A DNA stretch of 62,841 bases from a virus (Duplodnaviria; Caudoviricetes): positions 1 to 62,841 of the IMG/VR virus record IMGVR_UViG_3300046167_000691, one strand, 5' to 3'. The translations under genes were made by a program, and so were the position numbers. Below, piece by piece: positions 1 to 53,546 of this stretch (its first letter is position 1; the number at the start of each line of letters is the position of its first letter). The notes beneath the pieces are model-generated. The model did not search any database. It saw only the letters and a program-made list of their open reading frames with translations, and was not told the origin of the DNA.

Positions 1-54
1 GTTTTACCTAACTAAATAGTATATTTACACTTAAATACCCTAGTGAGAACCGTT

Positions 55-271
55 TTAACAACAATTACATCGATCCCACTCTTTACCGTTTCTACATGTT
101 TCACCTAAAACTTCTAAATCGCAGAATTCTCGGTGATAGAACTCTATTAACTCTGTTGTAGTGAACTTCTTCCTCCACTGAGTTGTCTGTTCGATCCAGT
201 GGTACTCACCGGATTTTTTCTACATTTCCGTCATTCATCCATTCTAACATTTCTTTAGTTACTTCATACAT
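55..271 (-). pseudogene. Copy of the 71-aa early ORF (61247-61462) with a +1 T in a homopolymer
   Basis: GGATTTTTTC (6 T, 214-219) versus GGATTTTTC (5 T) in the right copy; probably a sequencing error. Confidence 0.7.
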
Positions 272-313
272 AGTTATTATATTTAATTATTAGTTTATTA
301 TTAATTACACTTT

Positions 314-336
314 TATTATATATTACATGTCGTTTT
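314..336 (-). promoter_or_regulatory. Early-class promoter AAAACGAC-N8-TATAAT
   Basis: Repeated fixed-spacing motif upstream of a - strand ORF. Confidence 0.75.
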
Positions 337-473
337 TGCTATACACACACTCTGTTTTGTGGTAAAATTTCGATCTTTTTAGCTAAAATACGGTGAATTT
401 GGCTAAAGAACATAGGTATGCTATACACACAGTGTAGATTACTGTATTTTAGTTAAAAGCCGAAGCTATAAGC

Positions 474-791
474 CTACTTTTTAGTAGACTTAGCTTCAGT
501 TATAGTTGCCAGATGTCTGACAGTGCTTGGTAGGTTAGTACTTTGTGACCAGTACTTTCTTTTTATCCAGCAAGCTTGTAGTTGTAGCTTAGGTAACATT
601 GCATTGAGTATTGTATCATGACAGTATGTTACAGTTTGCTTTTTGTTGTTAACAAAGGTGATCTGTTGGTTGCGACCGAGCCAAGATTCTCTGACTACAA
701 AGTTTTTTCTGATGATCGGAGGCCAGATTTTAGCTTTATCTTCGTTTGACATTGTTTTTAGTGCTTTTTGCATAATTTCATTTGTGCTCAT
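474..791 (-). CDS. Early hypothetical protein, 105 aa
   Basis: ORF track; second allele at 61843-62160 differs mostly at synonymous sites. Confidence 0.85.
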   Translation of the reverse strand: MSTNEIMQKALKTMSNEDKAKIWPPIIRKNFVVRESWLGRNQQITFVNNKKQTVTYCHDTILNAMLPKLQLQACWIKRKYWSQSTNLPSTVRHLATITEAKSTKK

Positions 792-837
792 AATTTTTAA
801 TTTTAAGTTTATAATTTATTTTTAGTTTATATATTAA

Positions 838-860
838 TATTATATATTAATAGTCGTTTT
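838..860 (-). promoter_or_regulatory. Early-class promoter
   Basis: AAAACGAC-N8-TATAAT motif. Confidence 0.75.
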
Positions 861-948
861 AGTTATTTTATATAAATTAATTAAATTTAATATTTATTTT
901 TATATTTATTTTAATTATAATAATTATATTTATTATTAACTACATTTA

Positions 949-971
949 TATTATATATATAGTGTCGTTTT
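949..971 (-). promoter_or_regulatory. Early-class promoter, abutting TGCTATAC
   Basis: AAAACGAC-N8-TATAAT motif. Confidence 0.75.
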
Positions 972-1022
972 TGCTATACACAATGCTATGCACATTTTGC
1001 GATCGAGTAAAAAAATGCTATA

Positions 1023-1098
1023 CGCAGCCGGACCCCGGCTGGTTACCTCCGAGGTCAATTAGCTGAGGTCATCCCTCCTCACACCAAGGTCCGATGCG
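1023..1098 (-). ncRNA. Three-way-junction RNA motif, copy 1
   Basis: Long P1 with G-U pairs only on the - strand; P2 TGAGG/CCTCA; P3 ACCT/AGGT; conserved with 58263-58317. Confidence 0.65.
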
Positions 1099-1251
1099 CT
1101 AGACTGAAGCCCAGAACAGATCTTGCTGCTCTGGAGTTAGTCCTTTTAAGTTATCCTGGCCGAACATATCCTGGCAGATCTGGGTTCTTCGTTCAGACTC
1201 AGCTATGCCTCGCATAACCTCATCCCATGCTTGTGAATTAGTTTGATACAT
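1099..1251 (-). CDS. Early micro-ORF, 50 aa (MYQTNSQAWDEVMRG...)
   Basis: Translated by eye; frame conserved in the right repeat copy. Confidence 0.75.
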   Translation of the reverse strand: MYQTNSQAWDEVMRGIAESERRTQICQDMFGQDNLKGLTPEQQDLFWASV

Positions 1252-1252
1252 A

Positions 1253-1357
1253 TTAATTAATTTGTGTTAGTGAGTTAAGATATTCTACTGCGAGTGCTAG
1301 TTCGTAGTCATAGTTCATTGCTTGTGTGTACAGGTACTCTTCATTGTAATTTTTCAT
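1253..1357 (-). CDS. Early micro-ORF, 34 aa (MKNYNEEYLYTQAMNYDYE...)
   Basis: Translated by eye; tightly packed between neighbours; synonymous changes between repeat copies. Confidence 0.65.
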   Translation of the reverse strand: MKNYNEEYLYTQAMNYDYELALAVEYLNSLTQIN

Positions 1358-1358
1358 A

Positions 1359-1436
1359 TTAGTTTCGGATTGCGAAAGCTGCAGCAGCTCCCAGATTAGA
1401 CATTACTTTTTTAATTTTGATAATTGCATTTTTCAT
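1359..1436 (-). CDS. Early micro-ORF, 25 aa (MKNAIIKIKKVMSNLGAAAAFAIRN)
   Basis: First ORF after the promoter at 1463-1485. Confidence 0.55.
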   Translation of the reverse strand: MKNAIIKIKKVMSNLGAAAAFAIRN

Positions 1437-1462
1437 ATTATAGTTTTTATTAGTTACATTAT

Positions 1463-1485
1463 TATTATATATTATACGTCGTTTT
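1463..1485 (-). promoter_or_regulatory. Early-class promoter
   Basis: AAAACGAC-N8-TATAAT motif. Confidence 0.75.
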
Positions 1486-1493
1486 TAAAATAC

Positions 1494-1634
1494 TTAGCTA
1501 ACTAAGTACTTTATATGATCTCTTATGAAGTTTATATCTTCTTCATGAAAATGATTGTGATACTCTCCATTTAATTTTGTTAGTACATCATACATTTTTT
1601 CTTCTTTTGAGTAATTGATTGTGAATTCAAACAT
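1494..1634 (-). CDS. Early micro-ORF, 46 aa; probable paralogue of 1804-1986
   Basis: MFEFTINYSKEEKMYDVLTKLNGEYHNHFHEEDINFIRDHIKYLVS, translated by eye. Confidence 0.65.
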   Translation of the reverse strand: MFEFTINYSKEEKMYDVLTKLNGEYHNHFHEEDINFIRDHIKYLVS

Positions 1635-1719
1635 AATTTTTAATTTTTAATTTTTAATTTAATTTATAATTTATTTTAATTATTATTAATAATATTATTA
1701 TTATTATTAACTTCATATT

Positions 1720-1742
1720 TATTATATATACAGTGCCGTTTT
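1720..1742 (-). promoter_or_regulatory. Early-class promoter (CGGC variant)
   Basis: AAAACGGC-N8-TATAAT. Confidence 0.65.
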
Positions 1743-1768
1743 TGCTATACATGCTATACGCACGTAAT

Positions 1769-1802
1769 AAAAAAATGCTATACGCGATTTCTCGCGCAAG
1801 CT
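1769..1802 (-). terminator. Intrinsic terminator
   Basis: GCTTGCGCGA-GAAA-TCGCGTATAGC followed by A and T7 on the - strand, directly after the 1804 stop. Confidence 0.65.
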
Positions 1803-1803
1803 T

Positions 1804-1986
1804 TTAATAATTATTCCACCATTTTATTAAATTAGCATTTAAATTTTTATTTAAATTTATTATATAATTATTTATATAATTTTTATTTTCTTCACTAAAG
1901 CTATGAAATAATTTATTATTTAAATATATATATATGTGATAGCATTTATTAATTTCGTCAAATATTATTTTATTAGTAAAATCCAT
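1804..1986 (-). CDS. Early hypothetical protein, 60 aa
   Basis: ORF track; very AT-rich. Confidence 0.65.
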   Translation of the reverse strand: MDFTNKIIFDEINKCYHIYIYLNNKLFHSFSEENKNYINNYIINLNKNLNANLIKWWNNY

Positions 1987-2039
1987 AATTTATTATTTTT
2001 ATTTATTATTAATTTATTTATTATTATTTTTATTTATTA

Positions 2040-2228
2040 TTATTTTATATTTATTATTTTATATTTTAAATAATTATTATTAAATATTTTATCAACTTCT
2101 TTTAAATCTTTTTTATTAATTAATATTAATTTATTATTAATTTGAATCGGATGCTTTAATATATTTTTATTTATTATAATATTTAATATATTTTTAGGCT
2201 GACTAGTTTTTAATTTTAATATTTGCAT
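2040..2228 (-). CDS. Early hypothetical protein, 62 aa
   Basis: ORF track; downstream of the promoter at 2331-2353. Confidence 0.6.
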   Translation of the reverse strand: MQILKLKTSQPKNILNIIINKNILKHPIQINNKLILINKKDLKEVDKIFNNNYLKYKIINIK

Positions 2229-2330
2229 AATTTTTAATTTTAAATTTAATTTATTAATTTATTTTTTTATTTATTTTTATAATTAATTTAATATTTATTT
2301 TTATATTTATTTAATTATTTTCTTTATAAT

Positions 2331-2353
2331 AATTATATATAGAGTGTCGTTAT
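2331..2353 (-). promoter_or_regulatory. Early-class promoter (variant), outermost of the early arm
   Basis: ATAACGAC-N8-TATAAT. Confidence 0.6.
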
Positions 2354-2420
2354 TGCTATACACGCTAGCGCTGCAGCTAGCTGCTTATAAAATATTAAAC
2401 GAAAAAGCCTGTTGCTTGCT

Positions 2421-2472
2421 GCAAAACTCAAAGCAAAAGGCTAAAGCTAAAAGCTAAAAGCTGAAATCAAAG
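2421..2472. repeat. Short imperfect AAAGCT(A) tandem repeats at the divergent early/late junction
   Basis: ...aaagcaaaaggctaaagctaaaagctaaaagctgaaatcaaag. Confidence 0.6.
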
Positions 2473-2571
2473 GGGGACTGGGTAAAATGAATTGCGTTTC
2501 CCGTAGGAAAAAGTTTTTATAAATAAGCATGTAGCCCTATACCTCTTATTATGCAATAACAATTTTTACCT

Positions 2572-2600
2572 GTAGCTTTTGGAAAAAACGTGTAATTATA
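2572..2600 (+). promoter_or_regulatory. Middle/late-class promoter GTAGCTTT-N9-CGTGTAATTATA
   Basis: Motif repeated 6 times with 21-22 nt from GTAG to TRATTATA; heads the structural arm. Confidence 0.75.
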
Positions 2601-2626
2601 TATAACCATATAATAGAATGTAACGG

Positions 2627-2920
2627 ATGGCTTCAAAACAAAAATTATCGCCTGCGGCTAGAAAAGCAAAAGCGAAGAGAGACCTGGCTTATGCTAAGAC
2701 GGCTGATAGACGTAAGAAGAAGGCGCATGCACAGAGAGAAAGACGCAGAGCTAAACGCAGAGGTAAAAATGTCGATGGGTTAGATTGGGATCATAAAGAT
2801 GGCCGATGGGAAAAGATTTCTCGCAATAGAGCTAATGATGGAGAGGGAACAAAAAAAGAAGGTAAAAAGAAATATAAGGTACCGAAGCGCAAGCGCCGGG
2901 TTAAAAAGAAAAAGAAATGA
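2627..2920 (+). CDS. Basic protein with HNH-like motif
   Basis: K/R-rich; DWDHKDG...SRNRAND. Confidence 0.55.
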   Translation: MASKQKLSPAARKAKAKRDLAYAKTADRRKKKAHAQRERRRAKRRGKNVDGLDWDHKDGRWEKISRNRANDGEGTKKEGKKKYKVPKRKRRVKKKKK

Positions 2921-3723
2921 GTAGAATTACTACATATCCTATAATATCCACGGTAGCTCAAGATGACCTGCTAGTTATATCCGATGTTAGTTCTTCTACG
3001 TTTCCGACTAAGAGTGTTACGGTACAACAATTGGTGGGTGGAAGTACCGCCCCCTTAGCGCTGACTGTGAATGGAACATCGGGAGCAGCTACTTTAATAA
3101 ACAATGTTTTAAACATACCTCAGTATATTGGGGGTGTAAGTAGAATAATAGCGGGTACTAATGTAACCATATCGCCATCTGGTGGCACTGGAGCGGTAAC
3201 AATTAATGCCAGCGGCGGTGGTGGTGGCGGTATAAGTACTGTTAGCGCTACTGGAAAAACTGGGCCATCTTCCATTACAGGAACTAATCTTAACGTACCG
3301 GACTATAATAGGGACCAATTGGCTTTTTCTTTTAGTATAACTACCTCGAGTAATCCAATTATTAGGGTTGGTAGAAATACATTTACTCCCACAGCCGGCT
3401 CGGGAGATGTTAATTGGAGTATTGCAGCAGACGGTGGGACCGTGGGAAGCTTTACAATTACCGCATCGGCACAAGTGTTTAGTAATACCAGTAGCGGTAA
3501 TTACTTAACGCATTTTACTATAATGGACCCCAACCTAACAACTCCTTCATCGGGTACGGGGACTCTACCTAGAATAGCTATAGCAAAAGTAACCAGCACA
3601 ACTACTTTTAATTTAAGTTTCTTTCAGGGGCAGTCCGGTAATGTGCTTGGGCAAAGAATTGCTCCGGCTACTGGGGATCTTCCCGTTACGGTAATGGTAT
3701 CTAGGTATCTTTTAGGATTTTAA
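2917..3723 (+). CDS. Virion fibre/decoration protein
   Basis: G/S/T-rich, with repeated GAATLINNVLNIPQY / GPSSITGTNLNVPDY units. Confidence 0.6.
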   Translation: MSRITTYPIISTVAQDDLLVISDVSSSTFPTKSVTVQQLVGGSTAPLALTVNGTSGAATLINNVLNIPQYIGGVSRIIAGTNVTISPSGGTGAVTINASGGGGGGISTVSATGKTGPSSITGTNLNVPDYNRDQLAFSFSITTSSNPIIRVGRNTFTPTAGSGDVNWSIAADGGTVGSFTITASAQVFSNTSSGNYLTHFTIMDPNLTTPSSGTGTLPRIAIAKVTSTTTFNLSFFQGQSGNVLGQRIAPATGDLPVTVMVSRYLLGF

Positions 3724-3754
3724 ATAAAAAATAAAAAAATAAAAAAAATAAACA

Positions 3755-4045
3755 ATGGGACAATACGCAAATCAACCAGATTTTGGAACAATAGCGGTAG
3801 CAGTAACTGCTAGCAACACAATAAATAACACTACTAACTTAGATAGCTCATGCTTATTTATAGGAACAGGTGGTGATGTAAAAGTAATACTATCAGGAGT
3901 AAACGGTGCTGGTGGCACAGGGCGACCTACGGCAGCGCAAGCTGTGGTTTTTAAAGGTTTACCAGCAGGATCTTTTTTACCAGTTATAGTAGATTATGTA
4001 CTAGCTACTGGAACAACTGCTGCTGATTTAATAGCTGTTAAGTAA
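3755..4045 (+). CDS. Small structural protein (spike-base-like)
   Basis: LFIGTGGDVKV...FKGLPAGSFLPVIVDYVLATGTTAADLIA pattern. Confidence 0.6.
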   Translation: MGQYANQPDFGTIAVAVTASNTINNTTNLDSSCLFIGTGGDVKVILSGVNGAGGTGRPTAAQAVVFKGLPAGSFLPVIVDYVLATGTTAADLIAVK

Positions 4046-4185
4046 TGGGTGGTCAATCTATAGGTAACGGTATATGGTGGCCTTCTAATTATGGAGGCGG
4101 CGGTGGTGGTGGTCCGTTTATTATAGCGGAAAATGGTGACTTCATATTATCTGAAGCAGGAGATAACTTAACCCCAGAAAATTAA
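4045..4185 (+). CDS. Small Gly-rich structural peptide, 46 aa
   Basis: MGGQSIGNGIWW...IIAENGDFILSEAGD; translationally coupled to the upstream gene. Confidence 0.6.
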   Translation: MGGQSIGNGIWWPSNYGGGGGGGPFIIAENGDFILSEAGDNLTPEN

Positions 4186-4204
4186 AAACATAAAATAATA
4201 AACA

Positions 4205-6724
4205 ATGGCAAATATAAAATTTTCAGAATTTACTGAGGCAGCTGCAATAGGAGACATAGCTTTTGTTGTAGGATATGATGGATCAACCAATAAAAGAATA
4301 CTAGCTACCGATCTATTGGGGAATTATCTTCCTTTAGCTGGTGGTACAATGACTGGTAATACTCTCCACGGAGATAACGTAAAAAGTATTTATGGAGCTG
4401 GTGGAGATCTTGAAATTTATCACACTGGAACCCACAGTATTATAAAAGACGCTGGTACTGGTAATTTACAACTTAATGCTGGTAGTTTTGTATTAAACAA
4501 TTCAGGTGATACTCAAAATATGATTATTGCAATTGATGGGGGTGCTACTACGCTTTTTTGTGCAGGCGTTAATAGATTAGCAACTACATCCACGGGTATT
4601 ACTGTTGCTGGTAATGGTATATTTTCAGGTAACGTTGGTATAGGAACTACGAGTCCTAATGAAAAATTACAAGTTGCAGGAAACATTCACGCATACGCAC
4701 CTGGTGGTGTTAATGCTGAATTAGCAGCAAGTACTGCAGCAGGTTCAACTACTATAGCAATTAGGTCTTCAGGTGTAACTCATTTTAATGGGGGTAACGT
4801 AGGGATAGGTACTACTGCTCCTGGTGCTAAATTGCAAATTGGTTCTGCAACACATGCACCAAGTGGTAATTTAGCTAACAATCTTTTACAGATTAAATCG
4901 GCTTCAGGTTTCGCATATTTAACTATTGGTAACGGAGACTCTGCAAACGCTACGTCTTATATCGGTGGCGCTTCTGGTCTTACGGTAGTCGGTTCGGTAA
5001 CAGATGCTGGGGCTTTATCAGAATATATGCGTATAACCAATACAGGTAATGTAGGAATAGGAACTTCTAGTCCTAGCGATAAATTATCTGTTGTTTCAAC
5101 AGTTGGTATAGTAGGTGATGGTACAAATCAAGGTTTATTAAAACTTTATTGTGAAGCAGGAACTCCCCACTACGTAGGGCTAAAAGGACCTAATCATTCT
5201 GGGGGTAGTAGTTATACATTACAACTACCAAACACATTACCTAACGTAGCTAATCAAATACTTGAGTCAAATGCAACGGGAACCTTATCTTGGATTGCTA
5301 CACCAAGTGGTGGCGGGGGCGCATCAAGTTTAAATGGTTTAAGTGATGTCGCACTAACAGCTTTTACTTCTGCATTAATAAATATACCAGCAGGAGGCAT
5401 AGGTAGCTATAGTTTCACTATGGGGGCTGGGGCTGGTAATTCAATGACCACTGGCGCTCAAAGTAACACATTTATTGGTTACAACGCCGGAAACTCTAAT
5501 AATGGGGACAATCATGTTATGATAGGAGCTCATGCAGGGGAAAGAAATGCTGCGACTGTGTCATTTGGTAATGTTATGATAGGTAGATATGCCGGTAGAG
5601 GAGCGGTTGGAAGCGATGCACATTCTACTATAGCTATAGGCGAATCCGCTTTAGAAGCTGTAACGGGGGGCGACAGAAATATAGCAGTAGGGTTTCATGC
5701 TTTAAGAAGATTAACAACAGCTGGCTCAACTATTGCTATAGGACCAGAAGCTGGGGAATTTATTATTGATAAATCTGATTCAGTTATTATTGGCTATCAG
5801 GCCATGGAAAATGCTAATTCTGGGCAATGTGTAGTCATAGGTAGTCAGGCGAATGACACAGCTGTAACAAATTTCGGCACGGGAGCTATTCATATAGGTT
5901 ATCAAGCAGGTAGATCTTCTACAGGAAACCGAAAAATTAATATTGGTTGGACCGCAGGAACCGCTCAAACCACAGGAGGTGGTGTAAATATTGGTGAAAG
6001 AGCAGGTGCTAGTAATACGAGTTCACAAGGTAGAGTATGTGTTGGGGGCTATTCAGCTCAGTACAACACGGGGAGTTCTAATACTTTTATAGGAGAATAT
6101 TCTGGGCAAGGTATATCTGGATCGTCTAACGGCGGTTACAACACCACTTTAGGTTACAAATCAATGGAGGACCTTACAAGCGCTCAGTATAACACTGCAG
6201 TAGGTATTAATGCTGGTGGAGGAATTTCAACTGGATCGTTTAATACAATTTTAGGTGGGTATTCGGGTAATCCAGCGGGCAAACTTACTACAGGTAGCTA
6301 TAATGTGCTTTTAGGTGTAAACGCTCAAGGATCTACTGCTACTGTAAATAATGAAGTTAGTATTTTTAATAATAGTGTATTCGCTAGGTTCCAGGGTAGT
6401 GCAGTTGCTTGGTCATTTGTTTCTGACAAAAGAGATAAAAAAGATATAAAAGATTTAGAGCTAGGCCTTGATTTCGTTGACAAATTAAAACCAAGAAAGT
6501 TTAAATGGAATTTAAGATCTTCTGATAAAGATGATGGCGCAGAAGCATCAGGGTTTATAGCGCAGGAAATAAAAGAAACTCTTGATGAAAGCGGAATTGA
6601 CTATACAGGAATAGTTAACACGGATGACCCTAACCAATACACGGTAGCTCAAGCTAACATTATACCAATGCTAGTTAAAGCTATCCAAGAATTAAAAGCA
6701 GAAATAGAAATATTAAAATCTTAA
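4205..6724 (+). CDS. Tail fibre/spike with YadA-like head repeats and C-terminal peptidase S74 autochaperone
   Basis: GNVGIGTTSP repeats, NTxIGxxAG repeats, SDKRDKKDIKDL...GFIAQE...LVKAIQEL. Confidence 0.9.
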   Translation: MANIKFSEFTEAAAIGDIAFVVGYDGSTNKRILATDLLGNYLPLAGGTMTGNTLHGDNVKSIYGAGGDLEIYHTGTHSIIKDAGTGNLQLNAGSFVLNNSGDTQNMIIAIDGGATTLFCAGVNRLATTSTGITVAGNGIFSGNVGIGTTSPNEKLQVAGNIHAYAPGGVNAELAASTAAGSTTIAIRSSGVTHFNGGNVGIGTTAPGAKLQIGSATHAPSGNLANNLLQIKSASGFAYLTIGNGDSANATSYIGGASGLTVVGSVTDAGALSEYMRITNTGNVGIGTSSPSDKLSVVSTVGIVGDGTNQGLLKLYCEAGTPHYVGLKGPNHSGGSSYTLQLPNTLPNVANQILESNATGTLSWIATPSGGGGASSLNGLSDVALTAFTSALINIPAGGIGSYSFTMGAGAGNSMTTGAQSNTFIGYNAGNSNNGDNHVMIGAHAGERNAATVSFGNVMIGRYAGRGAVGSDAHSTIAIGESALEAVTGGDRNIAVGFHALRRLTTAGSTIAIGPEAGEFIIDKSDSVIIGYQAMENANSGQCVVIGSQANDTAVTNFGTGAIHIGYQAGRSSTGNRKINIGWTAGTAQTTGGGVNIGERAGASNTSSQGRVCVGGYSAQYNTGSSNTFIGEYSGQGISGSSNGGYNTTLGYKSMEDLTSAQYNTAVGINAGGGISTGSFNTILGGYSGNPAGKLTTGSYNVLLGVNAQGSTATVNNEVSIFNNSVFARFQGSAVAWSFVSDKRDKKDIKDLELGLDFVDKLKPRKFKWNLRSSDKDDGAEASGFIAQEIKETLDESGIDYTGIVNTDDPNQYTVAQANIIPMLVKAIQELKAEIEILKS

Positions 6725-6728
6725 AAAT

Positions 6729-6983
6729 ATGAGACGTAACACAGTAACAGCAGAAAAAGGATATGACGAAAATGATATATTAAATATACAAAGCCAATTA
6801 CCATCCCAACTACAGGATATTTCAGTGGCTGATATAGAGAGCGAAGTATACCAAAATATACAAGGTCACTTTTTATTCGTTTTAGCAGAAGATTTTTACA
6901 AAGATGAATTAACAGCTGAGCAAATAACTGAAATGGAAAGTTATCTACCTGAAAATTATCAAGAAATTTTTTATACTAATTAA
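6729..6983 (+). CDS. Acidic hypothetical protein (fibre-associated)
   Basis: ORF track; position. Confidence 0.6.
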   Translation: MRRNTVTAEKGYDENDILNIQSQLPSQLQDISVADIESEVYQNIQGHFLFVLAEDFYKDELTAEQITEMESYLPENYQEIFYTN

Positions 6984-7010
6984 TAATAGAAACATTAAAA
7001 ACTTAAAATT

Positions 7011-7352
7011 ATGATTACTTACGAATGGAATTGCAAAACAGTTGACTGCTATGTTGAAACAGAGGGAGAATCTGATGTAGTGTATAATGTGCATTGGATT
7101 GTTACTGGAGTTTCAGATACATTAAACCCACAAGGGGATCCTTACACGTCAACTAGCATTGGAACACAAGAATTAAAAATTGATGATATTACAAACTTTA
7201 TACCTTTTGATCAACTTACAAACGATGAGGTAGCAGCGTGGACTAAAAGCACAATGGGAGATGAACAAGTAACATATATTGAAGCAGGTATCGCGTCAGC
7301 TATTGAGTTACTTATAAACCCAGTTTCTGTTACTTTACAAGTTGGAGGCTGA
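7011..7352 (+). CDS. Conserved fibre-associated protein
   Basis: VVYNVHW...FIPFDQLT..V..W pattern typically found beside marine phage fibres. Confidence 0.65.
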   Translation: MITYEWNCKTVDCYVETEGESDVVYNVHWIVTGVSDTLNPQGDPYTSTSIGTQELKIDDITNFIPFDQLTNDEVAAWTKSTMGDEQVTYIEAGIASAIELLINPVSVTLQVGG

Positions 7353-7358
7353 TAATCT

Positions 7359-7387
7359 GTAGCTTTATAAAATTACGTGTGATTATA
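7359..7387 (+). promoter_or_regulatory. Middle/late-class promoter upstream of groEL
   Basis: GTAGCTTT-N9-CGTGTGATTATA. Confidence 0.75.
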
Positions 7388-7404
7388 TAATAAAATCTAA
7401 TTAA

Positions 7405-8943
7405 ATGAATCAAATAGTAAAACAATTTAGCTTTGGCGACAAAGGTAGAGAAAAAGTGTTTAAAGGTATCGAAACACTTACGGAAGCCGTAGCCTCAACA
7501 TTAGGAGGTGGCGGTGAATGCGTAATTTTTGAGGATGCCCAGGGAATACCTGTAATAACTAAAGACGGCGTAACAGTTGCCGAATTATCTGTACTATTAG
7601 ATCCTGTAGAAAATATGGGAGCATCACTAGTTAAACAAGCAGCTAGAAGAACAGTAGCGGAAGCCGGAGACGGAACAACAACTTCTACCGTATTGGCTTA
7701 TGCAATACTAAAGGAGTTTGCTAAATCGCCTATGAAATTTACTAGCAGACAAAAAAGAGATGCAATAAATAATATTATAGATAAAACTTTAACTCACTTA
7801 GAAAAGCAGGCTAAACCAGTTAATGGTGATATGATCGACGAAGTGGCTACTATATCTACTAACAATGATGCTGAACTGGGTAAACTAATTGCCGATGCAT
7901 ACAGAGCAGTGGATTTAACGGGCGTTGTTATGATGGAAACATCACAAGACGGGAATACGAGTATAGAGGTAGTTGAGGGGGTGCAGTATGAAAAAGGTTT
8001 TACTAATAATCATTTCGTAACTAATCACGCAAGCAATACAGTAGAGCTGAATAATCCAAAAATATTATTAGTTGATTCGATGGTAGACACGATTAGACAA
8101 ATACAAACTATATTAGAACATGTTATAAAAAATAACCTGGCACTACTTATAGTTGGAGACGTTGATCCTAAAGTTGCCGCAGCCCTTGCAATGAATAAAA
8201 ACAAAGGTTCTATAAAAGTTAATATAGTTCCAGCACCTACACACGGTGTTAATAGAAAAGAAATATTTGATGATTTAGCTTTATTAACAGGAGCAACTGT
8301 AGTAAGCGAAAATTTAGGTGATGATTTAGATTTAATTGATTTAGATTGTTTAGGCACTTGTATTAAGGCGGTATCAACGTTTAAAGATACAGTTTTTCAA
8401 GTAGCCGAAGAACAATCAGAAGATATTAAACTAATTATTGAAAGTATAAAAGAACAATTGCTTATAGAAAGCAATCCCAACAAAATAGTTAAACTTGAAA
8501 AAAGATTAGCTATGCTAGCTGCAAAACTTGCAATAGTAAAAGTTGGAGGTAATTCTGAGGTTGAATTAAATGAAAAGAAAGATAGAGTTGAAGATGCAAT
8601 ATGCGCAACTAAAGCTGCTATAAAAGAAGGTGTGGTTGCCGGTGGCGGAGTTGCACTAATTAATGCAATCAGAAGTATAAAACCAAAGTCATCTAGTGAA
8701 GAACTAGTTATTGAAGCTTTGTATTATCCTTGCAAAACGATTATGAAAAATGCAGGATTAGAATATGAGCATATAAATAAAAAAGATTTTGGCGTTAATG
8801 TTGAAACTGGAAAAACAGTAAATATGTTTAAAGCAGGTATTATAGATCCTGTACTAGTTACAAAGTCAGCATTAAAAAATGCTGCCTCAGTTGCTTCGAC
8901 TATATTGTCTACCAACTGTGTTATGTCTAACGTAAGAGGATAA
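7405..8943 (+). CDS. groEL: Chaperonin GroEL (phage-encoded)
   Basis: ITKDGVTVA, AGDGTTT, DRVEDAICATKAAIKEGVVAGGG, GIIDP. Confidence 0.97.
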   Translation: MNQIVKQFSFGDKGREKVFKGIETLTEAVASTLGGGGECVIFEDAQGIPVITKDGVTVAELSVLLDPVENMGASLVKQAARRTVAEAGDGTTTSTVLAYAILKEFAKSPMKFTSRQKRDAINNIIDKTLTHLEKQAKPVNGDMIDEVATISTNNDAELGKLIADAYRAVDLTGVVMMETSQDGNTSIEVVEGVQYEKGFTNNHFVTNHASNTVELNNPKILLVDSMVDTIRQIQTILEHVIKNNLALLIVGDVDPKVAAALAMNKNKGSIKVNIVPAPTHGVNRKEIFDDLALLTGATVVSENLGDDLDLIDLDCLGTCIKAVSTFKDTVFQVAEEQSEDIKLIIESIKEQLLIESNPNKIVKLEKRLAMLAAKLAIVKVGGNSEVELNEKKDRVEDAICATKAAIKEGVVAGGGVALINAIRSIKPKSSSEELVIEALYYPCKTIMKNAGLEYEHINKKDFGVNVETGKTVNMFKAGIIDPVLVTKSALKNAASVASTILSTNCVMSNVRG

Positions 8944-34873: not shown

Positions 34874-37800
34874 ATGTATACATATATCATAGACGATAAA
34901 AAAGTAACATTTAAAAATTGGGACGAAGTCTCTTCCGCTTTAGATGAAGCAGAAAAAAATGGATTAACCGCTGAATATGTTGATTATGAAGAAGGTTTGG
35001 ACGGGCCTAAAACGGAGGAACAAACAAAAGCCGCCGAAGAAAAAAGTATTATACCAAAAGCTCCTTTTCTACCAGATGCTGCAGAGAGTGCGGATGTAGT
35101 GTCGAAGACTCAAGCACAAGATACGGACTCACGATCGGAAGACTCTTCTTCGGGTTCACGATACATAAGATTTAAAAGCGGTACAATAATATACGAGGAT
35201 GACTATGTACAAAACTATGCTGATACGGAAAATTATCCCAAGTCATTTGATGACTACGCTTTAAAATTCGGTGGCAAAGTTCAAAAGGTAGAAGAATCAG
35301 TTGTTGAGGGAGGTGAACTTGATCCCGTTTATATCAGCGCAGGACCTCAATCTTATGTTGCTGAATTAGAAGGACTAAACGAATTCGGAGAAATTACAGA
35401 CGGTCAAGTAACGATAGATTATGATAGCTTAGCAAAAGAAAACGGTTTTGAAAGTGCAGCGGAGGCTTATGCAGAAACCGAGCCAAAAAGAGAAATGCTA
35501 AATGTATTTGAACCTAATAATGTAATTACCGATAGAAAAGGTAATGTAACCACTAGATTCAAATATGTAGAATATGAGGATGATACACCTGAAAAGAAAA
35601 AATATTTACGCGAACAGAAAGAAGCTACAGACTATGCAGTAAAATTAGCTCTTAACAATACCGAATTTTCTACAAATGATATTACTGATGTAAACACCTT
35701 TAATAAAGAAGTTTTTAATCCTGAGTATCTTTCAGAGCAGGCTAAATATTTGGAAAAAGCACTGCCTCAACTTAATTTATATCAAGCAGAGCTTGCGGCT
35801 TCTAATTATAATAATGCTAAGTTGCAACTGCTAAAAAATAAAGAGCTAGACGAGAGTGAAGAAGCTATTAATATTCTGCAAGAAGATAAGAAGTATACAG
35901 CAGTTATGAATCTTTATGAGTCTGAAGCTCTTAATAATTTACCTAAAGCCGGAAAAGAATTAGGTGTTGCGAAAAATAAACTTGAAGAAGCAAAAACTAA
36001 TTTAAAAACAATTGATCCTAACGCGAGGGCTATTGATTATACTACGCAAGTAAGAAAAATTAACGACTATAAAGAACAATTACAAAAAGCTATTGAGGCT
36101 TACAGTAATCAAACGCCTTTTGATTATGATAGTGAGGGTAACTTTAAATTAAAAGATCCAGAGGTTCCTATTATAACAGATCTTGATTATAACATATTAA
36201 CTCCTCAGGAAGTAGAAATTGCTAAAAGTAACGGGCAAACTCTTCTTATTGAAAATGAAAGGTATAAATATAATTTAGATAGAGCTTCGCAATGGAATGA
36301 TCGTGAAACTATAAAAAACAATTTTCTTTTAACTAGCATTGATAATAATAAATACACTGCAAAAGGCAAAGAAATTTATTATATTAAAACTACATCACCA
36401 TTATCAGATCCTCAGTTAGCCGGATTTGCAGATACACTTGAAGAAGATTCACCTACTAATTTGGAATACCTGGGTTACACTAAGTCCGGGGAACGTTTTT
36501 CAAAACGGCGTAAAAAAGATGGAGAGTATAGAGCTTATACGCTTAGAGAAATATCTAATGCTATCAATGAAGGAGATTGGAGTATAGATAGAATTAAATT
36601 TAAAGATGGCAAACCTGAAGGCTTTAACACCGATAGGGACTTTTCTAGGTTTAGTATGAATTATGCTGACACAAAAATGATGCTACCTATAGTTACTGAT
36701 ATGTACGTGCTAGGGCTGGATCCGGGTACACAAGGTGAAGATACCGCTATAAATATGGCTGGAGCTTTTACTGATGAACTATTAGAAAATTCTTGGGGTT
36801 TATTTGGAGATGGATTGGAAACTATAAGAGAAAAGAAAGATGCTCAAAGATTTACACTTGGAAAAATAGGGTTGCCAGAAACAGAGTCAATGAAAAAATC
36901 TTTTGAAAGAGGATTTATGATGAGACTTAGCGAGAGTGCAGGGGCATTCGTGCCTGTTTTAGGGGAATTTAGTGTTGCTACCGCTTTAACAGGAGGGGTT
37001 GGCAATGTATTAGGAACTGGTAGATTTATAAAAACAGCATTTTCAGGGGGTAAAAATTTAGGTAAAGCGGCGCAGGGTGCTTGGAAATCTAGCTATTGGG
37101 GGAAAAATCCTAGAGCTGCTAAATTTGCTGCTCACATGTTAAAATTTGGTGAAGAGGAAATAAAGTTTTCAATGGTAGCCCGGGGCGAGAACACTCTTGG
37201 CTCAGGTGGCGCTTTTTACTTAGGCGGTCTACTAACGCAAAGACTTGTTCCATTTAGATTTAATACAAAATATGATTGGGCTAATCCTGCTAATAAATTC
37301 TTAGAAAAGATTGTTCTAACCGGAGTGGGAGGTGCTAGTTCTTCAGAACTTTCTCATTTATCAGAAGCTTTTTATAAAGAATTCACAGGGGATAAATCTC
37401 TTAAAACTTCTATGGACGAATTTTGGGGAGACAACTCAGAAACTATGACTAGATGGTCTATTAACTTAATGCAATTTTCGTTTTTAGGTGGTACTAAAAT
37501 GAAAACATGGGATTGGGTAGCTGAGTCAACTGTTCAAAAGCTTAACAATAAATTTGTTAGACAAAGAAATAAAGCTTTAAGTGAAGGTAAAGATGTTGAA
37601 AAACTAAACCAAAAAATATACGAAACGGATAAAATTTTAGAATTAGGTAAAACTGAAGTTCAAAAATCTGATGTGATGGCGTTGCAAGAGGAAATTAATA
37701 AAATTGAAAAAGACGTAAATTCAGGTAAACTAAGTTATTCAGAGCGCCAAGACGCTATGAACAGAAGAATTGCTAATGAAAAGCAAATAGAAAAACTTCA

Positions 37801-40800
37801 GACAGAATTTAAAAATAAGCAACCATATTTTAAAAAGGAATTTGGAGTAAATCTTGTATTTGGAGAAGTTCCGGGTTCCAGAGGTGAGCTGAGCCCAGAT
37901 GGCAAAACCCTTACTATAGATAAAAATAAATTAAGCGAGGGTGTATTACAGCATGAGATGGGACATTGGGCTATGATAATGTCAGGCCGAAAAAATGGGT
38001 TAGTTGATAAAATGTATGAATCTATTTATAGCAGAGTTGAGGATGCTATTAAAGCTACTCAACTTAGAGGGGATCTACAATTAGCAGAAACTAATGATGC
38101 TCAAGGCAATCCTCGTAAAACAAGTACCTTGCAACAAGTATTGGAGGCTAAATATGGTAAAAACAATAAAGTTCTTAAAGAAGAATTTATAATGTTTTCT
38201 ATAGAGTTTATGAAAAATAATAAATCTTTTTCTAACGCTTTACTAAATAGAGGTGTAATTCAGTCTGTATATAAAGATTTAGCTGTGTTTGCTAATAATA
38301 AAGGTATTAATTTTGGTAAAAAACCTATTAACCTAAATAATGGAAGTAAAGATAATAGAGCTGATGCCGTAATAGACTTATTATACAAAATGGCTAATGC
38401 TAAGGGGCAAGGATATAAAGAAAACGTAAAAGCTTTAGGTGGAGTTGCGGTAGATAAAAATGGAGTGTATAGCACGGCTTCAGGAGAGAAGCTTTTGGAT
38501 CAAAAGCAATTAAAATCTCGTGAAATACAAGAAGAGCAAAGCCCGGAATATAGAAAGTTAAAAGCAAAAAGGGACGCTAATAATCAGAAAATTATAGATT
38601 TTTACGAAGAAAATAAAACCACACAATCTCGTGAAACTCTAGCGGAGGATTTAAATTTTCAATTTTTAGATCATGTTAAATTCCATGCTCGTAAAGCTCT
38701 TACTTTAGCTAATCAAGGTAAATTTCCTACTGAGTCTGAAATATACGAAGCAGCAACCGCTTATATATACGGGCTTCCTACAATGGGCCAGCCCGGAGGT
38801 AAAACTTTAGCAGAAAAAGCTATCATGCCTTTTTTTAGAGGGCAAGATATAATAGCCGCTATTAAAAGAGATAACCTTTCTGTAGAGCAAACTATTGGTT
38901 TACTAAAACAAGGTAGTATTCCTACTGGAGCGAAGACTTATGAGGATGCAGCTAAGGATCTTCACGATATGGCAACAGGTAAAAAACCGGAAGCTAGTAT
39001 AATTACCTATGTTAATAATGCTATTAAAGTTCAGCTTTTACCTGATGTTATAAAAAATAAGATACAGGAAGATCAATATGTAACTACTGCAGACACTCAG
39101 CAGTTGGAATATTTTGCTGAACAAATGAGTGAATACGGAGAAGGGGAAGTGTTTTCAGAAAAAGATGTCAAAGACTTTAAAGAAGCTGCTACGGTTGATA
39201 AAAAAGATGAGGGTTACGATGGATCCGGAGCTGCTAAGCGTAGAACCCGTGATTCTGCAATGAACATACTTAATATTAAACCTGAGACGCGAAAGAAGGT
39301 TAAAGATATAGTAGTAGATAAAATTGAAAACGAGCCAATAGAAGGCTTAGATGCTTTTAGCGTGGGTACTATGAACTTTGGAAAAGGAAAAGTATTTGAT
39401 ATAGAAGTGCCTACCGAGCCTAATCGAGCTAACGCGTTCGGTCCTGATGGTGTTAAAATAGAATTTAAAGGCATAAGAAAACCAGCAGATATATTTGAAA
39501 AGATTATAAAAATTATAAAAAAGGATCTTACTAACGATATAATAGATCAGACTAAAACCCCTGAGCAAGTAACAGAAGCTAAGGCTGAGATGGAAAGAAT
39601 TTTAAATTTAAAATTTAAAAGAGATGTTGGCTATGAAAAAGAACCTACTAGATTATTTAGAGTTGGGTTAGAAAGAAAAGCAGAAGCTGATTTGTATCAA
39701 GACATAAGGGCTGAGATGGGAGAAGTAGGGTCTGAAGCGAATCTTAGATGGCTAGCTAAGGCTAGAGCCTTAATGGATAACTACATTGATTTAAGCCAAA
39801 TAACAAAACGATTTGATTTAGATGTACTCTACGAAAAAGTATACAAGCTAGATGCACAAGGCGAACCAGTATTAAATGCTAAAGGTCAAAAAGTGCAAGC
39901 AAGAAGTGGTGAGCGTGCTTCAGGAAATTTACTATTTAAAAAGAGAGCTATATCAGCAAAAGAATATTTTGATTATTTTAAAGACAACGTCGTTAGGCAA
40001 GAATCTTTAGCTAAAGCATTAGCTAGAGAATTTGCGTTTGATCAAATAGTGGATGTTCTTAAATCTGATACAATTAAAAAAATTGCTCTTAAGGAAGGCC
40101 AAGAAATTACTACTATTGACATGGAAAAAGGATCTGAAATTTTCAGGGAAGACATGTTCAAACATATTAGAAGAGGTAGCAATATAGAAAAACTTTATAG
40201 TAAAGAAATTCAAGCTAGCGCGGAAAAAAGGCAAATATCCGAAAAAGACTTTAAGAAAGGACTTAGAGATTCTATTTTTCAACTTAATAATGCAGGTTGG
40301 GAATCCCTAGATTATGTACAAAAAAGTTTTATTAATGATGTTATTCGTGCAGAAATGGTAGGAGAGGTTGCTAATCTACGTGCTACTTTAAAGAAAGACG
40401 CACAAGATAGGCTAATTAAAGATAAAGATAAAGTTGATAATCATTTTGAAAATTTAAATAAAGAAGAATTTGAAAAAAGACAGAAAGGTGTTATGTATGG
40501 AATTAAAACACTTTTTGGGGAAATATTTAATGAAACATTAAATAAAGTTGCTAAAAGTCGCGGAGGCAATATTTCTACTGGAGAATTTTTAAATTCTAGA
40601 ATTTTAGGTGCAAATGATATAAAAGTAGGTTTAAATTTAGGTCTTAAAAATTTATATGAAATTGAAGGAAGAGAGGGGAAAAATTATGGAATTAAAAATG
40701 CTGATGAATTATATAAATCATCTAGCAAATCCGATGCTGCAGAATATTTTGAGCCTGGAACATTAGAAAACTTAAAAACTAATACAGAGCTTAATAATTT

Positions 40801-43800
40801 ATTAAACGATGCCAACACAAAAATAAAGGAAGCAGATAAACTAGCTAAAACTTGGTATGAAAAATCCGGAATGAAGTATGAAGTTTCTAAAGTAACTTTG
40901 GACCAAAACTCTGAAGTAGCAAGAACTGAATTATTTCGTGAGTCAGATAAACTTAGAATAGAACAACCTAAGTTATCTACCTCAAAACACGCTAACATTC
41001 TTTTTAAAAGAATGACAGCAAAAATTGGTAAAGAAGGTGTTAACGCATTGATAGCAGAAAGTAATGCATTACAGGCTACCCAAAGGGCGGTATTATATAC
41101 TATGGGCTTATTAGGGGAAAATGTAAAAGGCAAAAAAGGAAATGATGCAATAAAAACGATGCTTTACATGATGTCAGAAAATAATCTGCAGGGTTCAAGA
41201 AAAATGGCTCCTGAGATATGGTATGATTTTAATACTATTTATGAAGCCAGCAGTCGTAATAAACAAGGAAAAATTACTAAAAAAACTATTAATAAAATTG
41301 ACAAACCTATAGGTAATGAACATCTGTTACCTAGAGCTGCTTATTGGAGAAAAGTGTTCCAAGCATATAACAGTAAAAAACTTACAGATAACTCCGTGTT
41401 AGATGCTTTAGTAGGTGGGTACGAAAGTATGATAAGTAAAAAGGAGTTTCAAAATTTATCGGATGCTCTTACAATACCTAATACATGGACAGGCAAAACT
41501 TTAATAAAAGATGCTCCGGTGCCTTTTTTAGGTAAATTACTAATAGCTACTACTCCTGGTAAAAGTTTAAATAAAGCCGCTTGGAAAAGAGTATTAGGTG
41601 ATAATGGCGGTATAAATATGAAAGATCTTAATAGATTAAATAATATAAGAAAACTTGATGGAACCACCGCTTTACAGCAATGGGGTAAGGATTTGATAGC
41701 TAATTTTGAAAGTAGCTTAGTTAAGCAATCTATAGATGCCGCATATTCTAACAAACTTTTAGCTAAAAACTTGAGATTGCCAGAAGGCGCTAATGGAAAA
41801 CAAATGGTTGGAGCGCTTAGGCCATCATTTAAATCCAAAGAAATTCAGGAGCAAGGAGAAAGCTACAAAGAGTATAAAGAAAGAAAACAAACGCCTAAGG
41901 GTAAGCTATTAGAAAAAGAGTTAGCTACTATGATAGAAAGAAAAGGAGGTGCTCCTGCAGAAGCTACAGTGTCTGATTCAAAAGCTTTTATGGAAGGTAA
42001 AAAAAGGTGGGATGATTTATTTATTCCTTCTAATTCTATGGATTTTCGGGATTTTCTTTACAAAGGTTATGGAAAAGGCAAGCAAGGAGATGCTGATATG
42101 GCGTTTATGGAGGAACATGTTTTAAGACCATTAACTCGAGCTGAAAATGCACTTAGTGTTTATAGAATGAAATTAGCCGAAGACTATGCAGCTTTAGAAA
42201 CTCAAATTAAAGCAATGGGTGAAACTAAACCAGAAAAAGAAGCAGCAAAGCGAGTTGAAAAACTTGGTTACAATATTGATCAAGCAGTCCGTGTGTATAT
42301 ATGGCAATCGTTAGCTATGGATATACCGGGAATATCATTAGCTGAAAAATCTCAGTTAACGGGTGCAGTAATGTCTTCTCCAAAATTAAGAGCCTATGCA
42401 AAAGGAATAATGGATATAACTAAAACTAAAGAAAAATATCCTGAACCTAGTGCTAACTGGTTTAGAAGTAATGTACAATATGATTTATTCACACACGCAA
42501 CAGATGGTGTACGTGCGGATTTCTTATATGAATGGCAAGAGAATGTTGACGCCATGTTTACTAAAGAAAATTTAAATAAATTAGAATCTAGATTTGGTAG
42601 TAAGTATAGATATAACTTAGAGCAAATGCTTACGCGTATAGCAAAAGGAAAGTCAAGACCGGAAAGTACTAATGATTCTTTTAATACTACTCTTAATTAT
42701 ATTAATGGATCAGTTGCAACTATTATGTTTTTAAACATGAGATCCGCTGCTCTGCAAACTATATCTGCGGCTAACTATGTAAATTGGACAGACAACAACC
42801 CTATAGAAATAGCTAAAGTTATAAGTAAAAATCCTAAACTTTTTATACAAACAGCTAAAAAAATATGGTCTTCCGATGCATTACGTGATAGACGTACTGG
42901 ATTAAAAATTAATGTTCAGGAAGCTGAAATGGCTAAAGCTATGAAGCAAGGAGGAAGAACTGCCGCACAAGAAATATGGGATCAAATGATCAAAATAGGA
43001 TTTAAGCCTACACAGATGGCGGATAGTTTTGCTATTGTTATGGGTGGAACACCTTTCTATATGAACAGAATGAAAACGTATGAGAAAGAAGGTTTGAGTA
43101 AGAATGAAGCCGCTGACAAAGCTTGGGAAGATTTTCTAGACAAAACACAAGAAGGACAGCAATCGTCTCAAATGGATCGTATAAGCAATATACAGACAGG
43201 TTTAATGGGAAGATTGGTTTTTTCATTTAATAATACCCCCTTCCAAATGTCTAGACTACAAAAGAAAGCGTTTTTGGATTTAAAAAATAATAGAGGAGAC
43301 AAGAAAACTAATGTATCTAGAATGGCATATTATGGTCTTGTACAATCTTCATTATTTTATGGCTTACAGCAAGCATTTTACAGTACTGTAATGACCGATG
43401 ACGAAGAGCTGAGTGAAAAAGAGAAAGCTGAAAAGTACACTATGTATGAAAAGCGACTAGATAAACTAGGTAGAAGTGTGTGGCAAGGTATATTAACAGG
43501 GTCAGGATTACCAGGCAAGCTTAGCGTAATGGGATATAATACCGCATTAGAGGCAGCTACTCAATATAAAAAAGGATATCAAGGGTCTGATTTTTTCCCT
43601 ATATTATCTCAAATATTATCTGTATCCCCTACGCTTGGAAGTAAAGTAAATAGATTAGGTAGAAACTGGAAAAGTCTTATCATGGCTGAAAAAACAAAAA
43701 AAGGCATAGAATTTGGAAATACATTTAATACTTTAGATCCTCGTAATCCTAATAATAAAGCTTACATATCTATGGTTGGTACAATTACTAATATACCTTT

Positions 43801-51947: not shown

Positions 51948-52130
51948 TTAATAAGTTTGTAATTGGTTAAACATTCGTGTTAATTGTTCTTTTGTCGCGC
52001 CTGTGGTTCGTCGAATGTTATCGACCGCTTTGACGTGGTTCTGGTTGTTGTAAAAGTTACTGGCTTTTGTTTTCATTCCAGTAACTGTACAGGTTCTTTT
52101 GTTTGTCATAAAAAAATTAATTAGATTCAT
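51948..52130 (-). CDS. Hypothetical protein
   Basis: ORF track; follows an early promoter. Confidence 0.65.
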   Translation of the reverse strand: MNLINFFMTNKRTCTVTGMKTKASNFYNNQNHVKAVDNIRRTTGATKEQLTRMFNQLQTY

Positions 52131-52133
52131 ATA

Positions 52134-52156
52134 TATTATATTCTGGTAGTCGTTTT
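52134..52156 (-). promoter_or_regulatory. Early-class promoter (drives ssb/replication genes)
   Basis: AAAACGAC-N8-TATAAT. Confidence 0.7.
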
Positions 52157-52158
52157 TG

Positions 52159-52908
52159 TTATAATGTGCCAGATTTCACATAATCCTTTAAATCAAATAG
52201 TGGATCTTCTATTAAGGTTTCATACGCTATCATCGCTTGCGCAACTTTAGCTTTGCCTCGTTCATAAAATTCTTCAGAGCAATCATATATACCTATTTGA
52301 TGTGTCTTCTTACATATAACTAGAAAAACTAAATCGTAATCAAATATTTCTTTATAAATGTACGCTTGTGAGTCATAGTTATATATGTTTGCACTCTTCT
52401 TGAACTTATTAATATCACCAGTTGTCTTAATATCTACAAGTAAACCTTGATCTTTATTAATACAATCAGCTTTGCCCTTCCACCAAGTACCATTTATTTT
52501 TTTGATACCTGGTTCTTCGTTAATTGTGTTACCTCTTAAAAGTGATATGCAAACATCGTTGTTTAAGATTTTAGCAATCATTTCTTCGCATCTGTCTACT
52601 TCTTTTTTAAGTAATAACATTTCTTTACCCGACTTTGCAATAGCTTCCTTATAGATCTTTGTTGTTCTTGTTGTTGCGTCTACATAAGGATAGTTAGCTT
52701 TAAGCTTTTCAGGTTCGAGTATTGCTGTGTGGAGATACCCACCGATAAGAAAGTTAATATTCGTACCGGTCGGTTTTCCAAATTGCTCAGGATCGTTTAG
52801 TAACTTATATATGTCACTATTGGATCTATATTGTCTTCCCACTCCATTATAATACTCTTCATCATTGCGTAGTAATTCAACTATTTTTTTTTGTTCTGCT
52901 TTAGTCAT
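52159..52908 (-). CDS. RecE/exonuclease VIII-like PD-(D/E)xK nuclease
   Basis: GGYLHTAILEP, KGKAD...DIKTT, YDSQAYIY. Confidence 0.85.
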   Translation of the reverse strand: MTKAEQKKIVELLRNDEEYYNGVGRQYRSNSDIYKLLNDPEQFGKPTGTNINFLIGGYLHTAILEPEKLKANYPYVDATTRTTKIYKEAIAKSGKEMLLLKKEVDRCEEMIAKILNNDVCISLLRGNTINEEPGIKKINGTWWKGKADCINKDQGLLVDIKTTGDINKFKKSANIYNYDSQAYIYKEIFDYDLVFLVICKKTHQIGIYDCSEEFYERGKAKVAQAMIAYETLIEDPLFDLKDYVKSGTL

Positions 52909-53480: not shown

Positions 53481-53517
53481 TTATATAAGGTTTTTATTTG
53501 CGAACTTTCTATATATA

Positions 53518-53546
53518 TATAATTACACGTTTTTAAAGAAAGCTAC
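53518..53546 (-). promoter_or_regulatory. Middle/late-class promoter upstream of ERF
   Basis: GTAGCTTT-N9-CGTGTAATTATA on the - strand. Confidence 0.75.

Follow-up and report, generated by a model that had tools for sequence, protein, structure and literature searches.

Does a short segment near one end of an uncultured phage genome encode a functional RNA, and if so, of what kind? The original prediction placed an unrecognised three-way-junction RNA on the minus strand at positions 1023–1098, with a duplicate at 62392–62467 and a second copy at 58263–58317, and the sequence at all three places is as described. We analyzed the whole 62,841-base IMG/VR virus record (hereafter, the window), the completeness of which was estimated at 98%. 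The window phage encodes a large terminase, portal, GroEL-like chaperonin, ribonucleotide reductase, primase-helicase, thymidylate synthase, MazG, and a sigma factor (53567–54331). Among 87 records, the best match of its terminase was an uncultured Caudoviricetes record (62.8%), and because the next in line (approximately 44%) were phages of Flavobacterium, Cellulophaga, Tenacibaculum, and Maribacter, the host is probably a marine flavobacterium. A megablast search of window positions 1–8000 against a phage collection gave no match. Positions 1–1650 and 61193–62841 form an end repeat with 93–100% identity and amino-acid differences within a 50-aa ORF; such ends look less like an exact terminal repeat than like the product of assembling mixed strains of a genome that is circularly permuted or terminally redundant. 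Since the first ~1.65 kb are repeated at the far end, copy 1 is present twice. Small minus-strand ORFs occupy both record ends and the 52–62 kb region, with promoter repeats between them: approximately 15 copies of a sigma-70-like repeat (264–2362 and 52113–62349, minus strand) stand ahead of small genes, each composed of ATAGCA or ATAACA, 16 nt, and TATAAT, with a conserved AAAAACGAC spacer.

Copies 1 and 2 share one minus-strand fold, in which an enclosing helix (P1) is followed by a single G, the P2 hairpin, the joiner GYUAAWUG, the P3 hairpin, the joiner AACCA, and the 3′ strand of P1. In copy 1 (junction core 1030–1092), P1 pairs 1092–1083 with 1039–1030, J1/2 is G1082, P2 pairs 1081–1076 with 1069–1064 around a loop at 1075–1070, J2/3 (GCUAAUUG) spans 1063–1056, P3 pairs 1055–1052 with 1048–1045 around a loop at 1051–1049, and J3/1 (AACCA) spans 1044–1040. 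The P1 stem of this copy is much longer than had been supposed: it runs from 1104 to 1017 with about 20 pairs, starts at the stop codon (1101–1099) of a 50-aa ORF, and stops 2 nt short of a U7 run (1017–1104, minus strand; minimum free energy −36.4 to −38.4 kcal/mol, z = −2.0). The sequence described as a duplicate (core 62399–62461, minus strand, within the end repeat of the record) is indeed a second instance of copy 1 but not an identical one, as it carries a single base change, U for A atop P2, that restores a U-A pair. In copy 2 (58263–58317, minus strand), P1 pairs 58317–58313 with 58267–58263 (GUGGU/GCCAC), P2 pairs 58311–58306 with 58298–58293, J2/3 (GUUAAAUG) spans 58292–58285, P3 pairs 58284–58281 with 58276–58273, and J3/1 spans 58272–58268; the fold of lowest free energy predicted for it is this three-way junction exactly, running from 58317 to 58263.

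The window contains only three exact occurrences of the 12-mer AGGTAACCAGCC, namely in copy 1, its duplicate, and copy 2. Likewise, GYTAAWTGACCT is exact only at these three places, the remaining 23 of its 26 matches having two mismatches, which is the level expected by chance. A covariance model built from seven copy-1-type sequences only (R1) was run over the whole window on both strands with filters off; it retrieved copy 1 (92.3 bits), the duplicate (95.3 bits), and copy 2 (34.2 bits, E = 5.2e-6), followed by a match of 12.8 bits (E = 0.79), where the E-values of this and the two later models (R2 and R3) are rough owing to shortened calibration. These scores indicate that the likeness between copies 1 and 2 is not due to chance and that the window contains no further copy.

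Pattern scans of IMG/VR recovered the motif in the close-relative contigs L080, L097, L120, L122, L123, L124, and L125, as well as in L127, and R1 added none to these from a set of 200 fetched loci. Both copies are kept in L097 and L127, at a spacing of 3.6–4.2 kb. The copy 2 of L124 is divergent, with compensatory changes in P2 and in two of the four P3 pairs, and tens of its flanking bases are identical. In an alignment of 11 window-clade sequences (9 distinct) from seven related phage contigs, which was fitted to the model and hence favours the structure, 93.3% of cells pair versus 78.6% in shuffles. The earlier observation that the stems differ in sequence yet still pair is borne out by this alignment: 12 of the 20 pairs show double-sided compensatory changes, and RNAalifold recovered the same three helices (P1, P2, and P3) from the 11 sequences. 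The covariation score exceeded that of every one of 500 shuffles.

The proposal that G-U pairs fix the strand is also well founded. All 11 window-clade sequences have the U-G pair that closes P1, and additional U-G pairs lie within this stem; as these would be A-C mismatches on the plus strand, the minus (gene) strand is the functional one. Judging from these comparisons of sequence, copies 1 and 2 are very probably a real, strand-specific structured RNA with conserved joiners. The same pairs weigh against a DNA-level role for the locus (as hairpin promoter, recombination site, or origin) and against a recent functionless duplication. Such readings could draw on the stable fold of the plus strand of copy 1 (−32 kcal/mol), on the many promoter repeats nearby, and on a 3161-aa ORF downstream of the structural genes (34874–44359, plus strand). 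However, the stems covary around fixed joiners, the same junction recurs with unrelated stems in dozens of unrelated phage contigs (see below), and the giant ORF, which might have been a virion RNA polymerase, has no Pfam match. We therefore regard a DNA-level element or functionless duplication as extremely unlikely. An N4-like virion-polymerase hairpin promoter, a candidate considered in its own right, was rejected on the grounds that the G-U pairs and P1 covariation fit a gene-strand RNA and that the 3161-aa ORF lacks a Pfam match.

The two loci had been called unrelated, but 4.1 kb separates them, on one and the same strand and within a single block of small genes, an arrangement kept in L097 and L127; both window copies are thus within one early-gene block. 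Copy 1 sits after the stop codon of the 50-aa ORF that it abuts (1099–1251, duplicated at 62468–62620; minus strand; no Pfam or PHROG match) and before promoter repeats, the nearest of which downstream (926–978, minus strand; ATAGCA, 16 nt, TATAAT) lies outside the RNA and is given as context. Copy 2 lies within a 440-nt stretch with no credible ORF; the ribosome-binding site of a 20-aa frame there is missing from L127 and L124. The matches of neighbouring window proteins (pyrimidine-dimer glycosylase-like, KTSC, and GP88) are mutually unrelated and point to no RNA-related function. With a 185-aa neighbour protein as bait, only three loci were retrieved, all close relatives or marginal.

A tRNA-like element with a cloverleaf-like fold is located 65 nt downstream of copy 2 (58132–58198, minus strand). 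It contains an exact GGTTCGATTCC, an acceptor-like stem of 6 bp, and a T arm of canonical appearance whose loop is UUCGAUU; it gave a weak tRNA-Sec match (16.2 bits, E about 1), and ARAGORN called no tRNA there. Its T arm and acceptor stem are kept in L127 and L124, and its middle is replaced in L127 and much longer in L124. The element may be what is left of an attachment site, a tRNA gene in decay, or a mimic of a tRNA, and its link to the junction RNA is positional only. As a separate observation, a perfect 6-bp hairpin with a 3-nt loop (GCGUAU-GCU-AUACGC; 58409–58423, minus strand) is found just past a 63-aa ORF and upstream of copy 2, and is invariant in L127, L124, and L097.

For copy 1, it had also been suggested that the 3′ strand can switch into an alternative CAGCCGG/CCGGCUG hairpin ahead of a U-run and thereby act as a terminator. 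This hairpin is real, but the U-run begins 9 nt beyond it, L097 and L122 have no U-run, and the rival long P1 fold is far more stable (−36 to −38 kcal/mol). An intrinsic terminator would need a G+C-rich hairpin with a U-run within 0–2 nt and conservation among relatives; the terminator scan gave no canonical one on the minus strand at copy 1 or copy 2. The switch is accordingly abandoned here.

We then compared the copies with known RNA classes. At gathering thresholds, Rfam 15 gave nothing in the window; local scans at E ≤ 10 gave only a 9.6-bit snoRNA match inside an ORF around copy 1 and none around copy 2. The original prediction had assigned the motif to no known class and proposed an Rfam scan as the check, and this assignment stands, with zero Rfam 15 matches for the motif even in local scans at E ≤ 10. 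The ribozyme and riboswitch models (hammerhead, pistol, hatchet, twister-sister, HDV-like, purine, and TPP) matched neither copy, nor a member of the wider family in the phage contig L065. Words of the twister core or P4 loop were absent within 120–150 nt of all window copies, and ARAGORN predicted 0 tRNA or tmRNA genes in the window. Likenesses to the pistol linker, the SRP Alu domain, TPP, tRNA-Sec, and drum were considered and dropped, none being backed by Rfam; the published description of drum (PMC5737381) does not tie it to ribozymes. The motif description was found neither in Rfam 15 nor in the literature searched.

The junction is not confined to the window phage and its relatives. A pattern that left P2 and P3 free recovered elements in unrelated phage contigs with GG-UG, GUUAAAUGG, and ACCAGCC, enclosed by helices of widely differing sequence. 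The consensus of these elements is P1..GGU - G - C[P2]G - UUAAA - UGG[P3](A)CCA - GCC..P1′, from which it follows that the 3′ strands of P3 and P1 are contiguous; of 36 family members, 23 have an A ahead of CCAGCC. A stricter pattern, to which the window copies do not conform, yielded 72 IMG/VR loci representing 60 distinct elements. At least three further P1 pairs were present in 36 of the 60, compared with 7 of 120 controls with flanks displaced by 25 nt, and at least five in 20 of 60 (1 of 120 displaced-flank controls). At least three P2 pairs beyond the C-G closure were present in 26 of 60 elements and in 0 of 60 rotated-insert controls. Twenty-four of the 60 elements, selected for at least three pairs in both P1 and P2, were used for an alignment (A6) and a covariance model (R3), so the pairing of the first three pairs in each of these stems reflects that choice. 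In this alignment, which is hand-anchored and leaves the inner P3 outside the model, pairing reached 85.1% (62.2% when shuffled) and covariation 0.583 (0.139 when shuffled), with many pair types per position. GGU/GCC and the next G are invariant in 24 of 24 family sequences and in 11 of 11 window-clade sequences. A pseudoknot between a UGG of the P2 loop and the CCA, which had been raised as a possibility, is rejected: the L127 copy keeps the fold with a different P2 loop that has no GGG, and in the wider family, the CCA pairs with the UGG at the base of P3, no loop being involved.

Across 26 phage records, R3 found a single copy in 24, seven in G025, and none in G048. Among one-genome-per-species prokaryote contigs, about 7 of 50 pattern matches look real, and these real-looking members come from Chloroflexia and Promineifilaceae MAGs, a Thermodesulfovibrionales MAG, and a Clostridia MAG. 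Conversely, more than 20 matches from mitis-group Streptococcus (L349–L398) were rejected as a coding coincidence, since they come from an apparent conserved coding region and have no P1 or P2 pairing; the sequence pattern by itself is therefore not specific. Matches of the looser early pattern scans were mostly due to chance. On the strength of the covariation and the control comparisons, the family is a predicted set of previously uncatalogued small three-armed RNAs of many phages.

Do the window copies belong to this family? R3, which contains no window-clade sequence, was run over the window with filters off, and nothing but copy 2 fell below E = 1 (21.9 bits, E = 6.5e-4). Copy 1 was missing among its 11 window matches at E ≤ 10 and is tied to the family through copy 2 by way of R1. 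Run over whole records of the window's relatives, R3 retrieved just the copy-2 site from G049 and from G050; G048, whose copy 2 is the divergent one, gave no match. In the reverse direction, a model of the window clade only (R2) gave family members scores between 27.7 and 13.9 bits (E = 1e-4 to 0.4), although these E-values overstate the link, since the patterns used to choose the loci had themselves come from the window motif; R2 also revealed two additional copies in the contig L180. When R2 was applied to 24 records of terminase (TerL) relatives (73–100% identity, 80 loci; 3 complete and 21 partial genomes), there were 0 matches at E ≤ 1, and by this measure the motif is absent or unrecognisable in the wider terminase clade of the window phage.

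In terms of sequence, the shared P3/P1 3′ strand ACCAGCC is exact in copies 1 and 2. Relative to the consensus, P2 of copy 2 closes with U-A and there is one extra G, and its P3 opens with UG-A rather than UGG; both window copies are without the C-G closure of P2 and the UGG/CCA base of P3 that characterise the family. Their J2/3 joiners are recognisably like UUAAA, and the register of P3 differs. We consider it likely, from these sequence relationships, that the window copies are divergent members of the wider phage family, with copy 2 as the intermediate.

The settings of family members offer hints about what the element may do. In the large-phage contigs L065 (1530–2033), L178 (210–429), and L171 (3872–4112), it immediately follows tRNA-Glu(UUC) within a tRNA array and precedes another tRNA or a tmRNA, with gaps of a few nucleotides in L065 and L178; L160 and L176 are near-identical to L065. 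ARAGORN did not call the junction RNAs in L065, L178, and L171, though it called their neighbours. The tmRNA of the L065 phage has the tag GAYAPALAA.

A second setting is found in L180 (within G025), where Rfam type-P5 twister ribozymes stand ahead of small genes. At L180:6616–6725, the junction RNA is a 57-nt insert in the P1 loop of the twister match. Three more L180 copies cap P1 of twister-like cores with a covarying T1 pseudoknot, and L323 is similar, as judged by eye, whereas the copy at L180 4880–4949 occupies an intergenic slot and has no twister core. With regard to the ribozymes themselves, nearly every small gene at L180 900–6800 (and in L323) is preceded by a type-P5 twister, then AAGGAGAGAAA and the start codon, the T1 pairs being GGG/CCC, UAG/CUA, GGA/UCC, and GCAA/UUGC, and several copies fall below the Rfam threshold. 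Rfam gave 0 matches on 20 further family loci (146,985 bases), which implies that the association with twisters or tRNAs is not general.

By analogy with other ribozymes, such neighbours raise the possibility of a new self-cleaving or otherwise catalytic RNA class that would punctuate phage transcripts. Pistol, hatchet, and twister-sister were found through comparable ribozyme association; the junction is conserved, in L180 it is found in the same intergenic slots and tRNA arrays as known ribozymes, and at L180 4880–4949 it fills such a slot with no twister core. However, four copies are nested in functional-looking twisters, where a second cleaver would be redundant, and the element resembles no Rfam ribozyme model even at E ≤ 10, which makes a catalytic role very improbable in our view.

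A third setting is the gene leader. Among likely members scanned within 80 nt, 17 of 36 lie 0–50 nt upstream of a Shine-Dalgarno sequence and start codon. Placed there, the element might be a ligand-binding aptamer and hence a new riboswitch class which, on the twister P1, would put ribozyme cleavage under ligand control. Invariant joiners between variable stems are the usual aptamer signature, and four L180 copies replace the twister P1 loop beside the cleavage site, the very position at which sensors are attached in engineered aptazymes. On the other hand, the downstream genes of 10 members have no common function (eight proteins had no PHROG match, one was of unknown function, and one was a DNA methyltransferase), and no shared downstream gene or neighbouring protein family was found among these 10 proteins and the window neighbours. 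Nor was a conserved expression platform seen. Within tRNA arrays, members lack a gene that they could regulate; copy 1 comes after a gene, and promoters stand between it and the following one. The supposed terminator beside copy 1 is neither canonical nor conserved. A ligand-binding riboswitch is thus unlikely, though still the chief rival of the mechanism favoured below, and the broader proposal of a small-molecule or protein sensor plugged into different phage RNA devices is likewise doubtful.

The two covarying copies in the early region of the window phage might instead be explained, by analogy with HK022 put, by a cis-acting, polymerase-modifying signal for processive antitermination. Two copies per genome on the early-gene strand would suit such a signal, as would the location of copy 1 just ahead of a hairpin with a U-run and further early genes. 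Yet most phages have a single copy, some copies reside in tRNA arrays, neither window copy is followed by a canonical terminator, and twisters, where present, would cut immediately downstream and free the RNA from the polymerase. We rate antitermination as a slim prospect.

We tentatively favour a different mechanism, plausible if short of probable, in which the junction is an autonomous module at RNA boundaries that is bound by a conserved partner. Both copies would be domains of the transcribed strand that fold autonomously into a compact three-way junction. P1 and P3 share a continuous 3′ strand (..ACCAGCC..) and could stack end to end, and P2 would branch off the other strand between the single G and the U/A-rich joiner. 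The junction so formed would serve as a recognition module, its partner being less likely a metabolite than a protein of the machinery for RNA processing or translation. Placed where transcripts are cut or end, the module may survive as a structured RNA terminus or as a discrete tRNA-sized RNA; copy 1 would then form the 3′-terminal structure of an early message, and copy 2 the head of a non-coding stretch that also carries the tRNA-like element.

Several observations underlie the choice of a boundary module. The fixed bases of the junction call for a specific partner. Given the diversity of the hosts and the lack of any phage gene that accompanies the element, a conserved cellular protein is the first guess for the partner. 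Twister ribozymes cut directly 3′ of P1, and the places where members occur (between tRNAs, beside a stop codon, at the start of leaders, and on the stem next to the ribozyme cut) fit a boundary module. The 17 of 36 members near a Shine-Dalgarno sequence and start codon, by contrast, also fit a cis-regulator and count against it. A further point against it is that a plain protective hairpin would need no conserved junction bases, so end protection alone is insufficient to account for the conservation.

If the family is real, the known phage non-coding RNAs, few in number, would gain a widespread, sequence-defined module. Its three settings (free-standing leaders, tRNA arrays, and twister grafts) suggest a portable unit recognised across many hosts. 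Should the sensor reading prove true, twister self-cleavage in L180-type phages would be gated, constituting the first natural allosteric twister, and in the window phage, the fate of early transcripts would be set by a new phage-specific aptamer class. The twister-embedded copies provide a natural test of ribozyme gating via P1, and an element of 55–85 nt is a small target for probing, pull-down, and cleavage assays. As the window phage has no cultured host, tests would be easier on members from related cultivable systems than on its own copies.

Among known systems, the orphan motifs drum, DUF3800-I, skipping-rope, and FuFi-1 have been reported as highly conserved and complex, unlike ordinary riboswitches or ribozymes, and of unknown function, and have been described with following terminators and particular protein genes (Weinberg et al. 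2017, PMC5737381). They resemble the phage junction family, which is also conserved, complex-looking, and without an assigned function; they differ in being represented in Rfam, where none matches here, and in their terminators and associated protein genes, which the junction RNA lacks. The purine and TPP aptamers similarly have a three-helix junction, conserved joiners, and free stems, and often lie in a 5′ leader, but the junction RNA gave no Rfam riboswitch match at E ≤ 10 and has no common regulated gene or expression platform. A tRNA is matched in size (55–85 nt), in having a closing helix that joins the ends, and in the contiguous 3′ strands of two junction helices, as in the T and acceptor stems; moreover, three phage lineages place the junction RNA in tRNA arrays. 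It nevertheless has no T loop, D arm, or 7-nt anticodon loop, its P1 has 8–11 pairs instead of 7, and neither ARAGORN nor the Rfam tRNA model calls it. Type-P5 twisters (RF02684) are related through the members that form the P1 cap in L180 and L323, although the junction RNA there is an insert and not the ribozyme, and the window copies have no twister core. Finally, put of phage HK022 occurs as two structured early-transcript copies per phage that differ in sequence and share the same fold, each consisting of two adjacent hairpins and not a closed three-way junction. While the junction family is mostly single-copy and is also found in tRNA arrays and ribozymes, the window phage likewise carries two differing copies of one fold.
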